A stretch of 41,137 bases of DNA from a virus, in the UHGV virus genome UHGV-0139000, one strand, 5' to 3'. Below, piece by piece: positions 2,506-31,439 of this stretch; the stretch's first letter is position 1; every line of letters starts with the position of its first letter. The position numbers were made by a program, and so were the translations under genes. Below the pieces are notes generated by a model, which saw only the letters and a program-made list of their open reading frames with translations, made no database searches and had not been told where the DNA came from.

Positions 2506-2949
2506 ATGAATAAAGTTAAAAGTGTTTACAGCCCGTCCGAAAATGCAATCTACAACGCAGCGCTATATGAAAGTTATATCAAGGAGGGGACATGGCCGCA
2601 GGATGGTATTGAAATCAGCGATGAGGATGCTGTCAGATTTAATGGGGGAAATAAGCCAACAGGAAAAATGCTGGGAATGGTTTCAGGGACCCTTGCATGG
2701 GTTGATGAGCCGCCGCTTTCACCAGAACAGAAAATATCAGATGCAGAAAACATGAAAGCCACATTTCGTGCAAAAGCTGACAGTGAAATATCCTGGCGTC
2801 AGGATGCTGTTGATGCTGGTATCGCAACTGATGAAGAAACTTCAACTCTCACCCAATGGAAGAAATACCGTGTGCTGCTGATGCGTGTTGATACGTCAAC
2901 AGCACCCGATATTGAATGGCCTACGCCTCCGGCAGCTCAGGCCAGATGA
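2506..2949 (+). CDS. tail fibre assembly protein (alternate copy, Tfa')
   Basis: 147 aa; C-terminus TSTAPDIEWPTPP mirrors the C-terminus of the convergent Tfa at 2921..3514; sits after the alternative fibre cassette. Confidence 0.7.
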   Translation: MNKVKSVYSPSENAIYNAALYESYIKEGTWPQDGIEISDEDAVRFNGGNKPTGKMLGMVSGTLAWVDEPPLSPEQKISDAENMKATFRAKADSEISWRQDAVDAGIATDEETSTLTQWKKYRVLLMRVDTSTAPDIEWPTPPAAQAR

Positions 2950-3514: not shown

Positions 3515-4326
3515 TATTTAGCCCTCACCAGAAAGTTAAATGCAATATTTCGCGGTCTGACAGCAACAAAATTCACACCATCACCCACAGAGTTACTGGT
3601 GAAATTAAATCGTGAAAATCCTGGCTGATTTCCGGCGATGCCATCATGAAAGTTAATTGCGTGTCCCGCACCTTCGCCTACATTCCCGGCAAACTGAGAA
3701 AAGTTTGTAGCTGCCTGCCAGCTTAATAATTCGCGACCACCGTCTGCACCTCGCCCGTCATCCCAGATACGAATGAAATCACCGCGGGCTTCAGGTAATA
3801 CCAGCGAAGGAAATACTTTCGCCAGCACAGGATAATCAGTGGCAGAGAATTTCGCGCCGTTGAACTTCAAAAACACCATACTGGACCAGCTGTCGATTAC
3901 AGTATTTGGCATTGCAGCGGACGGCCAGAAGAACGGAACGCCAATAGCTGGAGCACCTTCTCCCAAACCAAGGTTTTCGAGAGCTGTTTTCACCGTGCCG
4001 TCCGATTTGATATCGCCAAACGGATTCTTGCGGCTCAGGTATTCAACAGCAAACCCCGATCCCAGCAATTCAACAAAACCGGGCAGATCACCATTATCAA
4101 GCACATCCCGTTGCGTTTTATCACTTACAAACTGGGCCAGAGCTGCAGCAATAAAGCTGGCCTGCCGAATAACCTTATTGACTTGCGCACTGGAGGCTTT
4201 CCCTGCTGTAAATCCAGATAAAAGCGCGGGCAACGCTTCCCATTCCTCCTGCGATATAACATTGGCATTTCGATCCGTTGCAAACGCTTTAAAGTCATTT
4301 TTCGCCATCAGAGTAATACTCCCCAT
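3514..4326 (-). CDS. tail fibre protein (constant N-terminal part plus currently joined variable C-terminal part)
   Basis: 270 aa; gix-like site R lies inside it and encodes [10 protein letters not shown]; downstream Tfa; preceded by baseplate genes. Confidence 0.7.
3948..3974. other. gix/hix-like recombination site R inside the tail-fibre gene
   Basis: ttctcccaaaccaaggttttcgagag: 26-bp imperfect palindrome; 15 bp identical in inverted orientation to site L. Confidence 0.65.
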
Positions 4327-26322: not shown

Positions 26323-26449
26323 AGCTCTGACCTCTACGTTTTGCTACGAAAAAATTTTCTGAGAACTACGTCTGTATATCCGTGGGTGTGGATAACGCAG
26401 TTCCGATTCGCATATTGCATGTATCAACATGCAAAAAGTTGCTAATGCG

Positions 26450-26645
26450 GAGTGGAACCACCTGCCCCCACCTGGAACCACCTTTTCCTAACCTTTCCCT
26501 CAATCGACTTATATATATATATGGGGTTTCTAGTAGAAAGGCGGTTCCAGTGGTTCCAGTGGTTCCGCCCCGCTTGCCACAAGGTCTGCAAGGTGGAACC
26601 TCCTTCTCTTTTAGGTGGTTCCGCGTGGTTCCAGCGGTTCCCAAA
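26450..26645. repeat. iteron-type replication origin
   Basis: Nine copies of GGTTCC/GGAACC (26454, 26474, 26543, 26552, 26561, 26595, 26617, 26627, 26636), several as GTGGTTCCA in both orientations, flanking (TA)n at 26509..26522; overlaps the 3' end of the primase gene. Confidence 0.7.
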
Positions 26646-28797
26646 CCTTGCATTTTTTCCCCCCAATTCGCCTTTGGGCACGCTTATACCCGCAATTTTG
26701 CAAAACATTACTAATTCGCATTTCTTCGCGTTTTCCGATGCGGTCAGGATTTAGCCCAATCGCATCACGCAAAACATCACTTGCGCGTAAAAATTCGCAA
26801 TTTCGCGGAAGTTCATTAGCCATCAGGTCTGGCGTGTCGAGCCATTTCTCTACCGTTTCAAGCCAAGCATCCTTGATGGTGTACTGTTCATGGACACTCG
26901 CTGCCAGTTGTTCAGCCTCACGGAACTGGATACCCCCCAGACGCTGAAACACCTCACGAGCCTCAGCCCAAAGTAAAAGGAGATCTCTTTTTATCGCTTT
27001 CACGTCGACTTTCGACACTTCCACGGGGAGCCAGCGACGGTTACCAGTCTTGTCCGCAAGGAATTCGTCCTCATTGGTGGTACCAACGAACACCAGGCGA
27101 CGAGGAAACTGGGTGGCGAACTCCCGGTATTTCGGGATCCAGTTTTCGTGAGTACGCGTCACAAACGCTTTGATTGACTCCAGCTCTTTGGTATTAAGTC
27201 CGCGCAGTTCACCAATCTCTGCCACCAGCCGACCACGCATTTTTCGAGCGAGATCATCGTCTTTTTCGGCAAAAGAGATTTCAGTAAAAAACGCAGGATC
27301 AGGGCTCAGTGCCTCCACTCCGGAAGACTTACCGCAGCCCTGCGGACCAACGAGGATCGGCACCATATCCGCTTTGATGCCTGGCTCCAGTACTCGCCCC
27401 GCCAACGCGGTCCACATGTACATAGACACCGCACGGGTATAAGGCGTGTCGGCTGTACCGAAGTGCGTATGGTAGAAACATTCGATGCGCGGCACGCCAT
27501 CCCACTCCAGCCCGTTCAGCCAGGTGATCGCTGAATCGAATGGTTGTTCATCGGCTGCAAGTAACACCACATCGCGAATAAGTTCACGACCAACAGGTTT
27601 AAATCCCCGCTTTTCCATCGTGATGCGCAGGCGCGCATAATCCGCATCGGTGAATGCTCGCCATTGTCCGGATCCTGCAGGGGCAAACATGATTTCGTCG
27701 CGGAACTGGTCAAAGCGAATATCGATGTCCACAAAATCAGGGCGTACTACTGCTTTGGCTGCGTTGCTGATGGTTGCCTCGATACGCCCCCATTTATCAC
27801 GCTCGAAAGCAGGCAGCGGTAAAGGTTCCGCCACTTCGGTGCTGGTCAGATCTTCGAAATCGTCGTTGCGGATCCCGATGGCATTAAGGAAATCTCCGTC
27901 ATCACGATGCGCACAACTGGCATGCAGGCATTTAAAATGCCCCTGCTCAAAGCCCGCGGTTCCCGCAGGAAAATAAGCTGTGCTTGTTGGATCGCCCCCG
28001 CTACTGTGGCCGTCTTCAAACGGACAGCGGATATATCGTTCACCATTTGCGCCATCCAGCAGCGTCCAGCCATTGGCATCAAGATATTCAGCTGTATCAT
28101 CCGTCGCGCCGGGCGTGAATGCTGATCGGTCGCGCATCTTCGTGTTGCCCGCTTCGGTGGTTACCGACACAGGGAGTTGTTCAGCCAGGCGCTGCCACAG
28201 CGTTTCAAGCTGCTCACCAGTAATAGCCGGAGGTTCATCCGGCAAACCACCGTCCCATTCAATACGCGCGCCGCTGCTGTGCGTACCACAGGCAACGAAC
28301 TGCTGCCCGTTCGCCAGCAACTCGATAATGCCCATATCCCCCGCCAGGCGATGGATACGCTTACGGAAATCACCATCAACGGCCAGCAGATACAGACACT
28401 TATTACTGTTTGCTCGCCAGCGTCGCGGCGGCAACTCCCCCAGAAGTTGCACAAGCGTTTTGCGAATATCTGCCTGAATGTCTTCATCTTCGCTATCGCA
28501 GTCCAGCGCCAGCCAGCCATGGCCTGTACGCACGCAGATGCCATAATCCGGTTCATTCGACCAGCGGGCAAAATCATGCTCAGTAACAACATACCCGGTC
28601 CATTGAGCAATACCGGTGACCTGGCGGTCCCGGTTATAGCGACTTGGCGTCTTACCCAGCGCTTTCAGTTTACTATCAGGGGATATGGTCGCACCGGGGT
28701 TACATACAACTGGGAGAAGATGCTCAGTTCTCCCCAATACCAGGTCGAAATGAAACCACTCATCAGGCGTAGCTCCCCATGGTTTGCTATCGGACAT
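26611..28797 (-). CDS. replicative primase-helicase (P4 alpha-like)
   Basis: 728 aa; Walker A VGPQGCGKSSG in the C-terminal half; N-terminal region primase-like; origin iterons at its 3' end; start 3 nt after the cro stop. Confidence 0.75.
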   Translation of the reverse strand: MSDSKPWGATPDEWFHFDLVLGRTEHLLPVVCNPGATISPDSKLKALGKTPSRYNRDRQVTGIAQWTGYVVTEHDFARWSNEPDYGICVRTGHGWLALDCDSEDEDIQADIRKTLVQLLGELPPRRWRANSNKCLYLLAVDGDFRKRIHRLAGDMGIIELLANGQQFVACGTHSSGARIEWDGGLPDEPPAITGEQLETLWQRLAEQLPVSVTTEAGNTKMRDRSAFTPGATDDTAEYLDANGWTLLDGANGERYIRCPFEDGHSSGGDPTSTAYFPAGTAGFEQGHFKCLHASCAHRDDGDFLNAIGIRNDDFEDLTSTEVAEPLPLPAFERDKWGRIEATISNAAKAVVRPDFVDIDIRFDQFRDEIMFAPAGSGQWRAFTDADYARLRITMEKRGFKPVGRELIRDVVLLAADEQPFDSAITWLNGLEWDGVPRIECFYHTHFGTADTPYTRAVSMYMWTALAGRVLEPGIKADMVPILVGPQGCGKSSGVEALSPDPAFFTEISFAEKDDDLARKMRGRLVAEIGELRGLNTKELESIKAFVTRTHENWIPKYREFATQFPRRLVFVGTTNEDEFLADKTGNRRWLPVEVSKVDVKAIKRDLLLLWAEAREVFQRLGGIQFREAEQLAASVHEQYTIKDAWLETVEKWLDTPDLMANELPRNCEFLRASDVLRDAIGLNPDRIGKREEMRISNVLQNCGYKRAQRRIGGKKCKVWEPLEPRGTT

Positions 28798-28800
28798 GGG

Positions 28801-29013
28801 TTAAGCCTTTTTATCGTTTTGTGAGCCATACAACAGCCAATTAGGGTCGCAATCCAATGCTATAGACATTTCAAGAAGATAACGTGGCCGAGCAATAACA
28901 CCACTTTCAATTCTGTTTATTGCCTGCTGGCTCACTCCTGTGAGCTCAGCCAACGTAACTTGCGTCATTTTGAGTTCTTTACGTCGTTCTTTTACTCGGG
29001 TCGCTAAGGTCAT
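28801..29013 (-). CDS. Cro-like HTH repressor
   Basis: 70 aa from the ATG at 29013 (GAGG 8 nt upstream); HTH MTQVTLAELTGVSQQAINRIESG; divergent from cI. Confidence 0.75.
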   Translation of the reverse strand: MTLATRVKERRKELKMTQVTLAELTGVSQQAINRIESGVIARPRYLLEMSIALDCDPNWLLYGSQNDKKA

Positions 29014-29133
29014 TGCTTTCACCTCATACAATTTTAGTGGTATTTAGCAACAACAAACGAGGTTTGTCAAATACAACAAAAATTGTTTTTAATGTGGGTA
29101 TACACATTAATACAACCCAGAAGGACTAATCCC
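29014..29133. promoter_or_regulatory. divergent cro/cI promoter-operator region
   Basis: Contains the operator-like dyad atacaa-N6-ttgttt (29071..29088), palindrome caaac-gag-gtttg (29054..29066) and an extra atacaa half-site (29110..29115). Confidence 0.55.
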
Positions 29134-29757
29134 ATGTCTCTCGCAGCCCGTTTTAAAGCACGTCGTTTGGAATTAGGAATGACTCAAGTGGAAGTAGCGA
29201 ATTCTGCAGGGGTTAGCCAACAATCCATAGAATCCATCGAAAGTGGACGAACCAGAAAGCCACGCAATCTTCTGGATCTGGCTAAGGCCTTGAAATGTAG
29301 CCCAGACTGGCTACTGAACGGTAAAAATATTATGCCTCTCGCGGAGATAAGTACCAGACGCATACCTATATTAAGTTACGTTCAGGCAGGAGAGCTTACA
29401 GAAGCAAGAGACATAACAGATCTGACAGGGGAATTTGAATATATTTTGGCAGACTCTGACATTCCAGAAACATGCTTCGCATTACGTATTGATGGCGACA
29501 GCATGCAACCAGAGTTTAAAGAAGGAGACATTGTTATCATCGATCCTGATCTATGTCCTGCACCAGGGGAGTTTGTTGTCGCCAAAAACGACGGTCACGA
29601 AGCTACATTTAAAAAATACCGTCCATTAGGAATCGGCATCGACGACTTTGAATTAATCCCCCTAAATCCTGATTACCCTATTTTTCGTAGTGCAGATATG
29701 AACTTACAGATCATAGGTGTAATGATCGAACACCGTATTTACCGCCGTAAACGTTAG
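29134..29757 (+). CDS. CI-type repressor with LexA-like S24 autopeptidase domain
   Basis: N-terminal HTH (MTQVEVANSAGVSQQSIESIESG); Ala-Gly cleavage site in SYVQAGEL; C-terminal domain with GDSM (Ser) and FKKY (Lys); AGGA 8 nt before the ATG. Confidence 0.85.
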   Translation: MSLAARFKARRLELGMTQVEVANSAGVSQQSIESIESGRTRKPRNLLDLAKALKCSPDWLLNGKNIMPLAEISTRRIPILSYVQAGELTEARDITDLTGEFEYILADSDIPETCFALRIDGDSMQPEFKEGDIVIIDPDLCPAPGEFVVAKNDGHEATFKKYRPLGIGIDDFELIPLNPDYPIFRSADMNLQIIGVMIEHRIYRRKR

Positions 29758-29775
29758 TATTCCCACCGTAAATAT

Positions 29776-29795
29776 CGGGAGGCGTAACAGCCTCC
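29776..29795 (+). terminator. hairpin immediately after cI (weak terminator candidate)
   Basis: gggaggc-gtaaca-gcctccc, 7-bp GC-rich stem; only a weak T tract follows. Confidence 0.35.
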
Positions 29796-29883
29796 CTTAC
29801 CCCATTTGTAAAGTCTTACAAATTAAATTCACTTAAATATCAATAAAGTAGTATTCACACCCCACAAAATACCACATTTGTGG

Positions 29884-29912
29884 TTTACACAATACAACTC
29901 AAATTGTATCTT
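29884..29912 (+). promoter_or_regulatory. early (PL-like) promoter overlapped by a perfect operator palindrome
   Basis: -35 tttaca (29884..29889), 16-nt spacer, -10-like gtatct (29906..29911); operator atacaa-ctcaaa-ttgtat (29892..29909) matches the 29071..29088 site at 17 of 18 positions. Confidence 0.5.
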
Positions 29913-30079
29913 TAGCCACAAGTCGAACGGCGCGACTCTAAACCATGCGTCGGGACCGTGGCGGGACAGGATGTCGGCAATACGGGTCAGTAAGTTCCCT
30001 TTGGGGTGCGGCGAAGCACTGTCTACTGATACAAGTCGAAGCCGCCGAACCACCAAAGTGAACTGAATGAGGAAACGGC

Positions 30080-30274
30080 GTGAAAACGTATAAACCGCTC
30101 AAAGGTGAATGCCCTGCTTGCCAAACACAGCTTCAGACACCAAAGCCAAAACGATACCAAATCAACGAATGTTATGAGCACTGCCCTGGATGTGGTGCTT
30201 TCCTGCATACCATTGCAACGCACTGGCGTGTCCGCTTCAACCTTGTGGTACCACGTACGCACAATACCAACTGA
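30080..30274 (+). CDS. small Cys-pair zinc-ribbon-like protein (64 aa), first early gene
   Basis: GTG start with GAGG 7 nt upstream; CPAC...CPGC pairs; followed by an intrinsic terminator. Confidence 0.5.
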   Translation: MKTYKPLKGECPACQTQLQTPKPKRYQINECYEHCPGCGAFLHTIATHWRVRFNLVVPRTHNTN

Positions 30275-30305
30275 ATCATCCATGTAATTGCTGTGTGTAG
30301 TCTTT

Positions 30306-30331
30306 GCCCGCCGCAAGTGACGGGCTTTTTT
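30306..30331 (+). terminator. rho-independent terminator after the first early gene
   Basis: gcccg-ccgcaagtga-cgggc followed by tttttt. Confidence 0.6.
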
Positions 30332-30390
30332 ATGTCTGAAAGCGCACTCGCAACAGCGCGCTCCCCGATATGAAAAAAGGAATACAACCG

Positions 30391-30540
30391 ATGAAACCTG
30401 AACACCTCTATCGACTGACGGGGCGCGATGTTCTCCGTTATCGCCGTAAAAACTTCGATTTGATGACCGGTCTGGCCGTTGCCACTGCGCTCGGTCTGAT
30501 CATCACTTTCATTCTCCTTGTAGCGAGGACCACAGTATGA
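30391..30540 (+). CDS. small membrane protein (49 aa), below the ORF-track length cutoff
   Basis: ATG at 30391 with AAGGA 10 nt upstream; [49 protein letters not shown] (basic N-terminus, C-terminal helix); stop overlaps the next ATG (ATGA). Confidence 0.4.
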   Translation: MKPEHLYRLTGRDVLRYRRKNFDLMTGLAVATALGLIITFILLVARTTV

Positions 30541-31439
30541 GTTTAGAAACCAGTCTCGAACTTAATAATCAACTTCTGGCACAACATAATGCGCTGCTTG
30601 AACGTCTTATCCGCACGATGGCATCAGGTATTGTTATGCATCCTGACACGATTTCACGAGTGCAGGAATGTCGGGATACAGCAACTGAAACTGAAAATAT
30701 GTCAGCGGCAATGACACTGGATGATCTGGAGTTCAGCGACGTTATCGCACTGGCTGGTTTCTACCCGGTAGCCACCCCTATCACAGAAGACATGCTGCAA
30801 CGTGCTGTTGCCTACCGTGATGCTGAAGGCGATAAACGAGTAGTTCAGATTGATGCTCTCGACAGCGCATTGCAGGGCGTCAAACGAGCCAGGGCACTGC
30901 ATAAACCCGCTCTTCTGGACCTGTCCCGTAACATTCTTAAGTTCTGGGACGACCTGCCAACCATCGGCGAGCGACGTGCTTTTGCCGAGCAACTACTTGA
31001 TGCACCTGCAGATGGGCGTGATGAAGTTAAGCCGAAAAAGGCCAGTAACAAAGATGGAGAACGCACGGGGCCGTTTTACGTCAAAAATGTATCCGGCACA
31101 GCAGCCAGTGAACTCCACACCTTACGCAAGTTGAACGAGATGCTTAAAAAAGGCCATATCGAGATCAACCGTGTTGAGTACCTTCAGCTGCAGGAAGAAT
31201 TTGCACGCAGAGACGCAGCAAATTCCAGCCAGAATAATGACGCCAAAGATGACCATACAATTGATTTCGCTGCACTACGCAAACAAGCTGAAGGGTTGAT
31301 CCTCCAGTTAGCAAAAGGGGGTTACCGGGCAGAAGCTATTGCAATTCTGGAAAAACAGGGAGCCAGGAAACTTGGTGAAGTAACGGATGAAAATCTCGCT
31401 GAAGTAATCACCCTGGCTGAAAAAGCACTGGAGGGTTAA
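30537..31439 (+). CDS. hypothetical early protein (300 aa)
   Basis: Operon position before the nuclease and polymerase genes; no motif recognised. Confidence 0.55.

Follow-up and report, generated by a model that had tools for sequence, protein, structure and literature searches.

Phage lambda has 17-bp operators of a sequence unrelated to those discussed below, a leaderless cI mRNA and antitermination of the N/nut type. In the phage 434 paradigm, the second protein of the switch is Cro, which acts on the same operators as the repressor. Phage 434 carries six 14-bp sites, in which the outer 4 + 4 bases are, one exception aside, conserved (PMC1636474). For the present comparison the sequence of the 434 genome itself served as the source of these six operators; the operator annotations of record OL657227 were left unused because the annotated positions fall inside the cI coding sequence of that record. 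In phage HK022, the putL element lies directly downstream of PL (PMC9378689).

The region described here belongs to a viral DNA sequence of 41,137 nucleotides, hereafter the window, and can be regarded with considerable confidence as a switch of phage 434 design that controls the immunity of a lambdoid-type E. coli prophage, and for which we infer binding, the order of affinities, activation from OR2 and the exact start sites. The switch is of the textbook lysis/lysogeny type, contains no novel class of element and leaves the understanding of phage switches unchanged; it offers, for an immunity specificity hitherto uncharacterised, a concrete operator map. Two matching repeats had been proposed in the initial annotation as a candidate OR/OL pair. 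It is very probable that both are repressor operators of the prophage, one right and one left, since the cI and Cro proteins are homologous to the 434 repressor and Cro, the core of the sites equals the 434 operator consensus, the sites are co-linear with 434 OR and OL, and they are very strongly conserved in relatives. The proposed pair is nevertheless incomplete, and its members are best read as two of the five or six sites predicted from the sequence for a 434-like repressor and Cro, flanking cI.

Repressor, Cro and gene order

The cro-like gene (28801..29013, minus strand), taken from the list of open reading frames and a Pfam match to HTH_3, encodes 70 aa and is the first gene of the leftward operon, divergent from cI and on the opposite strand. 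The best solved relative of its product is phage 434 Cro (1ZUG/2CRO/3CRO; E 1.9e-19). The cI-like repressor gene (29134..29757, plus strand) encodes 207 aa comprising a 434-type HTH domain and an S24 self-cleaving peptidase domain (Pfam HTH_3 and Peptidase_S24, the latter with E 1.8e-21). The N-terminal domain matches the 434 repressor chains 1PER/2OR1/1RPE with E 5.9e-16, the protein matches lambda repressor with E 5.8e-15, and the C-terminal domain gives UmuD/LexA-type matches. The S24 motifs are represented by a predicted cleavage site at Ala85-Gly86, by Ser123 in GDSM and by Lys160/161 in TFKK.

Overall identity to 434 cI is 38%. In the alignment, the equivalents of 434 Gln17, Gln28, Gln29, Arg10 and Arg43 are invariant, residues whose DNA-contact roles we take to be those seen in the 434 co-crystal structures; the Gln-Gln pair that opens the recognition helix is likewise invariant. 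The residue equivalent to 434 Gln33, also in the recognition helix, is Ser in the window. The closest repressors of isolated phages, at 58-60% identity, are those of Enterobacter phage CobraSix, Klebsiella phage ST16-OXA48phi5.2 and Yersinia phage vB_YenM_29.18, and none more than 60% identical to the window cI was present in the collection searched.

The operon layout follows the annotation that RefSeq gives for the same prophage. The leftward operon runs through cro, a VapE primase, Q, lysis and morphogenesis genes, and the opposite flank is occupied by a DUF2800/DUF2815/DNA polymerase operon, so that the flanking modules, unlike those of 434, are not lambda-like. The window also differs from 434 in having neither a rex-like gene nor an N gene after cI, a put-type RNA following PL instead. 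The divergent arrangement of cI and cro, the homologous proteins, the 14-bp ACAA-N6-TTGT operators and the S24 self-cleavage domain are shared with 434; the divergent PR/PRM pair around a tripartite operator, the co-directional orientation of cI and PL and the homologous cI C-terminal domain are shared with lambda. The immunity region occurs in about 44 of 5,426 complete E. coli genomes, including O55:H7 and other O-typed strains. A megablast search returned no isolated phage with this immunity region, matches being limited to the downstream early-operon DNA.

Predicted operators and promoters on either side of cI

The conservation values given below refer to 35 diverged relatives whose recognition helix is the same, identity being measured against the window; in this set, the third codon positions of cI are 45% identical and neighbouring non-operator patches 46-53%.

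The cro-cI intergenic region extends over 29014..29133. The repeat ATACAA-N6-TTGTTT previously noted here was confirmed as ATACAACAAAAATTGTTT at 29071..29088, and a search for further copies of the motif, suggested in the initial annotation, yielded a third of equal quality, ATACAATTTTAGTGGTAT at 29026..29043. Together with a degenerate site between them, these define three positions at OR. Their cores start at 29028, 29050 and 29073, as against 2411, 2433 and 2456 in 434, the steps of 22 and 23 bp being identical. This co-linearity, together with that of the OL sites described below, identifies the originally proposed pair as OR3 and OL1. The same comparison contradicts the assumption of one shared operator per promoter: OR1 and OR2 had been overlooked, and at least two positions are seen at OL. 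The two proposed sites, described as identical at 17 of 18 positions, in fact agree at 15 of 18 overall and at 11 of 12 over the half-site positions.

The OR1-equivalent operator, ATACAA-TTTTAG-TGGTAT (29026..29043, core 29028..29041), has one mismatch to ATACAA-N6-TTGTAT. It immediately precedes the ribosome-binding site of cro, overlaps the -10/start region of the leftward cro promoter and is 15 nt from the cro start codon, compared with 14 nt in 434. The site is 98% conserved, and across 51 loci of the same specificity it is essentially invariant, variation being confined to the first flanking base and one base of the right half. Its TGGT half-site may be the one preferred by the repressor.

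The OR2 equivalent (29048..29065, core 29050..29063) is degenerate, with the core ACAA-CAAACG-AGGT, but is spaced as in 434; it is located inside the PR spacer and abuts the shared -35 block. The left half ACAA is retained in 49 of the 51 same-specificity loci, while the right half reads ATGT or GTGT in most of them and AGGT in the subgroup of the window, where it matches the consensus at two of four positions. With 82% identity this is the least conserved OR site, and its assignment from the sequence is the weakest of the three.

The OR3-equivalent operator, ATACAA-CAAAAA-TTGTTT (29071..29088, core 29073..29086), contains an exact ACAA-N6-TTGT and falls between the -35 and -10 of the putative promoter for cI maintenance, at the same position after TTTGTCAAAT as in 434. 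This TTTGTCAAAT -35 block, between OR2 and OR3, is itself identical in the two phages. Core and spacer of the site are invariant across the 51 loci, and its identity over the 35 relatives is 94%. In contrast to 434, OR3 rather than OR1 is the best consensus match within OR, and the classical order of affinities therefore cannot be read from the sequence.

The putative PR-equivalent promoter for cro (29042..29070, minus strand) consists of a -35 TTGACA (29070..29065), a 17-nt spacer and a -10 CTAAAT (29047..29042), co-linear with the 434 stretch TTGACA-17-GAAAAT-OR1, and the TTTGTCAA block of this region is retained by almost the whole family. A PRM-equivalent promoter for cI is inferred from the 434 and lambda precedents at 29064..29093 (plus strand), with -35 TTGTCA (29064..29069), an 18-nt spacer and -10 TTTAAT (29088..29093). 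The TTTAAT block after OR3 is kept in relatives, while the remaining cI leader diverges; a perfect dyad in this leader, TTAATGTG-GGTATA-CACATTAA (29089..29110), was considered and set aside, as it is not conserved in relatives. In a promoter scan of 28700..30400, the hexamers of PR and PRM were below threshold and only the early PL-like promoter was returned, so that PR and PRM rest on the alignment.

On the other side of cI, that PL-equivalent promoter, TTTACA-17-TATCTT (29884..29912, plus strand; -35 29884..29889, -10 29907..29912), is the only sigma-70-like promoter reported by the scan, and its -35 and -10 line up with those annotated for PL in phage HK022. Relatives retain positions T1, A2 and T6 of this -10, which reads TAGATT, TACATT or TATATT in them. 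The perfect palindrome previously seen to overlap this promoter is present as ATACAACTCAAATTGTAT at 29892..29909, with perfect half-site symmetry, between TTTACA and TATCTT. This OL1-equivalent operator, ATACAA-CTCAAA-TTGTAT (core 29894..29907), has no mismatch to the pattern, fills the -35/-10 spacer, occupies the same position relative to TTTACA as 434 OL1 and is 93% conserved.

The OL2-equivalent operator, ATACCA-CATTTG-TGGTTT (29869..29886), had escaped notice. Its core ACCACATTTGTGGT (29871..29884) is a symmetric ACCA-N6-TGGT variant, sharing the TGGT half-site with OR1. The first base of the PL -35 hexamer falls within it, and its conservation is 99%. The OL2 and OL1 core starts are 23 bp apart, as in 434 (3616 versus 3639), and OL1 follows TTTACA in both. 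A candidate OL3 equivalent, ATATCA-ATAAAG-TAGTAT, is found at 29837..29854 (84% conserved). Its left half ATCA is poor and the OL3-OL2 spacing is 1 bp off that of 434, the core starting 32 bp upstream of the OL2 core compared with 31 bp in 434 and CobraSix. The right half reads TGGTAT in relatives, identical to that of OR1, and CobraSix has a good operator at this position. The assignment of OL3 from the sequence is tentative. The half-sites are of two classes, ACAA/TTGT at OR3 and OL1 and ACCA/TGGT at OR1, OL2 and the candidate OL3; the use of TGGT/ACCA at OR1 and OL2 and the degenerate OR2 and OL3 are differences from 434.

According to this map, the cI-like repressor and the Cro-like protein would bind as dimers to 14-bp operators with an ACAA-N6-TTGT core, with TGGT/ACCA as a half-site variant that is either tolerated or preferred. 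With OR1 and OR2 occupied by repressor, the leftward TTGACA-17-CTAAAT promoter would be blocked and cro, primase, Q and late genes kept off; the OR2 dimer, its centre some 43 bp before the cI start site, could aid RNA polymerase at the weak cI promoter, which excess repressor or Cro on OR3 would shut. On the left, repressor at OL1, in the PL spacer, and at OL2, over the -35, would silence the rightward early operon, with the weak OL3 candidate about three helical turns upstream. The early-operon transcript would open with a putL-like RNA rendering polymerase resistant to termination, and upon DNA damage, repression would be relieved through RecA-stimulated cI self-cleavage at Ala85-Gly86.

Dyads and A/T-rich box upstream of the early promoter

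The 158-nt spacer between cI and the early promoter holds three distinct perfect inverted repeats, as against about 0.17 expected pro rata from the 43 in the window (arms of at least 7, loops of 2-10). At the 3' end of cI, a GC-rich perfect inverted repeat, GGGAGGC-GTAACA-GCCTCCC (29777..29796, plus strand), is followed by no U tract; the fold of 29760..29830 as a single sequence has -20.5 kcal/mol, and in the consensus structure of 13 relatives this hairpin is the only helix, with seven pairs, three of them showing compensatory changes. It may serve as a terminator or RNA stabiliser. The two other dyads reported earlier are genuine perfect inverted repeats, each lying one base further right than stated: ATTTGTAA-AGTC-TTACAAAT at 29804..29823 (dyad 1), whose right arm falls in an A/T-rich box, and CCACAAA-N8-TTTGTGG at 29862..29883 (dyad 2), whose inner part is the OL2 equivalent.

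The A/T-rich box (29816..29837) is found in most family members, and a CAAAnTAAAT-like box occurs at the same position in groups with other operator specificities; a non-repressor factor may therefore bind there. One possibility, which we consider rather unlikely, is that 29816..29855, comprising this box and ATATCAAT, is a host-factor site (IHF, Fis or an UP/curvature element) modulating the early promoter and not OL3. IHF modulates lambda PL from upstream, and its consensus is WATCAANNNNTTR. The left half ATCA of the OL3 candidate, poor as an operator, is almost invariant, and TATCAA is the IHF consensus core; relatives L083-L092 read TATCAATTAATTG, a full consensus match, and the upstream box is independent of operator specificity. 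The window, however, fails the IHF TTR element (TATCAATAAAGTA), the right half TGGTAT/TAGTAT is of the OR1 type, and the position is within 1 bp of OL3 in 434 and CobraSix. The two roles are compatible with each other.

A more speculative pair of proposals concerns the same box and the half-sites: that the A/T-rich box and dyad (29804..29837) might bind an extra host or phage factor tuning the put-driven early operon, and that the two half-site classes, with the Gln33-to-Ser change, might discriminate between cI and Cro, unlike in 434, where ACAG in OR3 and the central bases are involved. Taken jointly, these are quite improbable.

The initial annotation, which assumed a single shared CI/Cro operator at each promoter, had taken the reversed polarity of dyads 1 and 2 as a sign that a second, distinct protein binds DNA in the interval from cI to the early promoter. 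Both dyads are perfect and locally enriched, dyad 1 is 74% conserved compared with 45-53% at unconstrained positions, and its right arm shares the box that recurs across operator specificities. The idea is nonetheless unsupported, because dyad 2 contains the operator-like ACCA-N6-TGGT (29871..29884) at the exact OL2 position and has its outer left arm in a variable patch, and because the symmetry of dyad 1 is lost in same-specificity relatives (L082, L083-L092 and L086), which keep the flanking box. The patch in question, 29856..29868, is 53% conserved, near the level of cI third codon positions, and CCACAAA reads CCCATAA, CCAATAA or CTCAAAA in relatives. Moreover, no candidate gene for an extra regulator was found adjoining the region, a small ORF at 30080..30274 giving only sub-threshold zinc-ribbon matches, and in the 434 paradigm it is Cro that shares the operators of the repressor. 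A different second protein is thus very unlikely, and dyad 2 is better understood as OL2 joined to a non-conserved arm.

Other assignments for these elements were tried and rejected. Compared by eye, dyad 1 misfits in spacing or sequence the consensus sites of CRP (TGTGA-N6-TCACA), TyrR (TGTAAA-N6-TTTACA) and LexA (CTGT-N8-ACAG). Inspection of both strands of 29800..29860 by eye gave no sigma-70 hexamers with the key -10 bases, as a second promoter in the conserved box would have. As for a conserved RNA hairpin or terminator at dyad 1, the RNAalifold consensus keeps the GC hairpin alone.

Operator specificity among relatives and the put-type leader

In the 41-kb window, ATACAA-N6-TTGTAT with at most one mismatch has three matches, all flanking cI, compared with 0.11 expected, and none of 100 shuffles reached three. 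The exact 14-mer ACAA-N6-TTGT occurs twice (29073 and 29894) versus 0.91 expected, which alone is not significant, and the 18-mer with two mismatches allowed gives 3 versus 1.71 expected, within chance. It is hardly credible that the repeats are promoter-associated A/T-rich sequence or a chance likeness of two promoters without repressor binding: operator regions are indeed A/T-rich and these two looser counts are unremarkable, but the near-exact sites, three in number, far exceed expectation; the operators show dyad symmetry, coincide in place and spacing with those of 434, keep 93-99% identity against 45% at cI third codon positions, and vary in their half-site with the recognition helix, which the -35 block does not.

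This covariation was followed over about 100 loci of Enterobacterales. Position 4 of the half-site is A or G depending on the type of recognition helix: QQS[IV]E[ST], QQAIES, QQGIVS and the QQSIEQ of 434 pair with ACAA half-sites, and QQSW.. and QQSIEA with ACAG, while operator spacing and -35 block remain constant across helix types. The reach of the 434 design is thereby illustrated, the same tripartite spacing and -35 block recurring throughout the set, and the tracking of half-sites with the helix possibly makes these loci a natural data set for repressor-operator specificity.

CobraSix, ST16-OXA48phi5.2 and vB_YenM_29.18 have the tripartite arrangement of both OR and OL in common with the window, along with its spacing, its -35 block and the co-linear order of terminator, A/T box, OL3, OL2, OL1 and -10. 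They differ in having canonical U-tract terminators after cI, cII genes after cro, the ACAG/CTGT half-site and a QQSW.. recognition helix; given this half-site and helix, they should be heteroimmune to the window prophage.

With HK022, whose repressor and operators are of another specificity, the window shares the PL-putL arrangement, an early promoter with co-linear -35 and -10 followed by a put-type RNA of about 70 nt. A search of the window for a second, putR-like copy was negative, and Rfam returned no family for the leader in 28000..31000 or 29880..30400, a sub-threshold RprA match lying further downstream. In heteroimmune E. coli prophages, similarity to the window begins at 29916 and extends rightwards only, which marks a mosaic junction, and where they share the put leader, their operator positions are occupied by repeats of unrelated sequence. 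The leader itself (29916..29995, plus strand), predicted to be transcribed from the PL equivalent directly upstream, resembles the HK022 putL antiterminator RNA: its single-sequence fold does not cleanly recover the two put stems, but it is 79% identical over about 85 nt to the annotated putL of HK022, HK75 and O276, and in the alignment the first stem shows a compensatory change (GTCG..CGAC versus GACG..CGTC).

Probable operator sites and their likeness to phage 434

The immunity region around the cI-like repressor gene (29134..29757, +) is a new representative of the 434 family. The two 18-mers reported in the initial annotation are found at 29071..29088 (ATACAACAAAAATTGTTT) and 29892..29909 (ATACAACTCAAATTGTAT), with 15 of 18 positions identical (11 of 12 over the half-sites) rather than the 17 of 18 claimed. 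The search it proposed for further copies of ATACAA-N6-TTGTAT yields a third site, overlooked there, at 29026..29043 (ATACAATTTTAGTGGTAT). With up to one mismatch, the pattern occurs three times in 41 kb against 0.11 expected, a count reached in 0 of 100 shuffles, and all three matches flank cI. The site at 29892..29909 lies, as had been noted, inside a promoter-like pair, TTTACA-17-TATCTT (29884..29912), the only one returned by a scan of 28700..30400, which supports a PL-equivalent early promoter.

The outer four plus four bases of the six 14-bp phage 434 operators are conserved with one exception (PMC1636474). The consensus of these six sites, taken directly from the 434 genome sequence, is ACAA-N6-TTGT, the same as the core of the window sites. 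Furthermore, the non-coding regions of both phages are co-linear. In the comparison locus L005, from the 434 record OL657227.1, the OR cores begin at 2411, 2433 and 2456; those of the window begin at 29028, 29050 and 29073, with steps of 22 and 23 bp in both, and TTTGTCAAAT between OR2 and OR3 is common to the two; the OR2 equivalent (core start 29050, ACAACAAACGAGGT) is degenerate. In both phages OL1 follows TTTACA (window core 29894..29907, ACAACTCAAATTGT) and lies 23 bp from the OL2 core (29871..29884, ACCACATTTGTGGT). A possible OL3 equivalent at 29837..29854 (ATATCAATAAAGTAGTAT) has a poor left half, and its core lies 32 bp upstream of the OL2 core, compared with 31 bp in phage 434. By this co-linearity, the originally reported pair corresponds to OR3 and OL1. 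The initial observation is partly confirmed and its interpretation partly supported: the assignment to OR and OL holds, but too few sites were counted.

In L005, the GenBank protein_bind features OL1-OL3 (2641..2722) fall within the cI coding sequence, while the ACAA-N6-TTGT sites of OL are actually at 3585, 3616 and 3639; the record seems to give wrong coordinates here.

The cro-like protein (gene 28801..29013, -) has phage 434 Cro as a close homologue (E 1.9e-19). The cI-like repressor is homologous to that of 434 in its N-terminal domain (E 5.9e-16) and to lambda cI, UmuD and LexA in its C-terminal part. Its Pfam domains are HTH_3 and Peptidase_S24, with Ala85-Gly86, Ser123 and Lys160/161 in the expected motifs. 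Identity to the repressor of any isolated phage in the collection searched does not exceed 60%, so the specificity itself is uncharacterised among those phages. The design of the switch is textbook.

Conservation and specificity among relatives

The comparison drew on 124 loci: 114 that encode repressor relatives, together with annotated phage and E. coli records. On registration at the TTGTCAA block, all groups whose recognition helix is of the Gln-Gln type have the same three OR positions. Where the helix is that of the window (VSQQSIES, 51 loci), no change is seen in the core and spacer of OR3, changes in OR1 are confined to the first flanking base and one right-half base, and OR2 keeps ACAA in 49, with ATGT, GTGT or AGGT on its right side. 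The fourth half-site base tracks the helix: ACAA occurs with QQS[IV]E[ST], QQAIES, QQGIVS and 434's QQSIEQ, and ACAG with QQSW.. and QQSIEA.

For a set of 35 diverged relatives with this helix, whose repressors are 86-95% identical, identity to the window is 99% for OL2, 98% for OR1, 94% for OR3, 93% for OL1, 84% for the OL3 candidate and 82% for OR2. The corresponding values are just 45% at cI third codon positions, 53% in the patch 29856..29868, and 46% in 29788..29803, which comprises the 3' arm of a GC hairpin and the following bases. In heteroimmune prophages of this phage type, for example vB_EcoM-606R2 and those of strains STEFF_1 and 93_0495, the repressors are unrelated, and so are the repeats that occupy the operator positions. 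Several heteroimmune prophages resume matching the window exactly at 29916, just past the early-promoter -10, indicating that the immunity module ends at the transcription start.

Promoters, leader and additional dyads

The early-promoter -10 keeps T1, A2 and T6 in relatives, and the promoter is co-linear with the annotated PL of HK022. The hexamers of the cro promoter (TTGACA 29070..29065, CTAAAT 29047..29042, leftward) and of the cI promoter (TTGTCA 29064..29069, TTTAAT 29088..29093) are below the scan threshold, so we infer both from alignment with 434 and conservation. The sites, their spacing, their conservation and the homologies are shown by the sequences, and the proposed working of the switch adds predicted binding, affinity order, activation and start sites. 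In a lysogen, cI dimers would block the cro promoter at OR1/OR2 and the early promoter at OL1/OL2, and the OR2 dimer, ~43 bp upstream of the putative cI start, would aid the weak cI promoter. OR3, within the cI-promoter spacer, would let cI limit its own transcription and let Cro switch the promoter off, and induction would follow RecA-stimulated cleavage at Ala85-Gly86. The best match to the consensus is OR3, so the sequence does not reveal whether the classical order of affinities applies.

An HK022-type put leader and non-lambda replication modules accompany this 434-type switch. DNA annotated as putL in HK022, HK75 and O276 is 79% identical to 29916..29995 (+), the 80 nt after the early promoter, which probably encodes a putL-like antiterminator RNA directly 3' of it. 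The putL of HK022, immediately downstream of PL, renders RNA polymerase terminator-resistant (PMC9378689). No Rfam family matches this leader, and no second, putR-like copy was found within the window. Same-specificity prophages (loci L007, L055-L066, L083-L092 and others) carry one of two leaders after the early promoter, put-type or GCTCTTTAACAA-containing, and switch right after the -10 (window 29913..29916). The GCTCTTTAACAA element resembles boxA of nut and rrn antiterminators.

Two further dyads had been taken to suggest a second DNA-binding protein. Both are perfect inverted repeats, located one base to the right of the original coordinates, at 29804..29823 and 29862..29883. The latter, CCACAAA-N8-TTTGTGG, consists of the OL2 equivalent and, outside it, a left arm within the variable patch, for which relatives have CCCATAA, CCAATAA or CTCAAAA; conservation is limited to the inner ACCAC(A/G)TTTGTGGT. 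The former, ATTTGTAA-AGTC-TTACAAAT, persists in the nearest relatives (74% overall), and its symmetry is absent in the comparison loci L082, L083-L092 (CCGCAAAATTTTACCA) and L086. The second-protein proposal is not supported; nothing here requires a phage DNA-binding protein beyond Cro, which in phage 434 acts on the same operators as the repressor. The right arm of the 29804..29823 dyad belongs to an A/T-rich box (~29816..29837, 85% conserved). Since a CAAAnTAAAT-like counterpart occupies this position in groups whose operators differ in specificity, the immunity repressor is an unlikely reader of this box, which may be a host-factor site or curvature element.

As a conserved RNA structure, the 29804..29823 dyad was dropped by RNAalifold on 13 relatives, where the sole helix retained is the GC hairpin 29777..29796 (+; 7 pairs, 3 with compensatory changes). 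This hairpin, 3' of cI, lacks a U tract, whereas ACAG-group relatives carry canonical terminators with T7-8 in its place. A perfect dyad, TTAATGTG-GGTATA-CACATTAA (29089..29110, +), at the start of the putative cI leader, is confined to the subgroup closest to the window and is not kept where the repressor is 92-94% identical.

Gene layout and an RprA-like element

Chromosomal prophages of many E. coli strains (e.g. 2013C-4465, O55:H7 CB9615) are 99.5-100% identical over 1.7 kb around the sites. According to RefSeq, the CB9615 leftward operon encodes a cro-like HTH protein, a VapE-domain primase, a Q antiterminator, lysis genes, terminase and head genes; on the rightward side, a LexA-family repressor precedes an operon with DUF2800, DUF2815, DNA polymerase, VRR-NUC and SNF2 genes. 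About nine GGAACCAC/GTGGTTCC repeats in both orientations, on either side of a ATATATATATATAA run (~26440..26650), lie partly within the 3' end of the VapE gene for the primase and partly in the gap before the Q gene. This array looks like an iteron-type replication origin.

An RprA-like small-RNA element (30226..30335, +; strongest part 30279..30335) is located at and past the stop codon of a small ORF (30080..30274), the first in the early operon. It matches Rfam RprA with 48.2 bits (E 5e-5), under the gathering score of 70, and its 3' two-thirds (AAUUGCUGUGUGUAGUCUUUGCCCG...CGGGCUUUUUU, terminator included) are nearly identical to the consensus. Among 30 matching papers, the 10 titles listed pointed to no description of such a phage element. 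It may represent a phage-borne copy of the region through which RprA pairs; it is retained in heteroimmune relatives (the vB_EcoM-606R2 group and loci L006 and L007), and the Erwinia phages Ea9-2, Frozen and Rexella contain a similar stretch.
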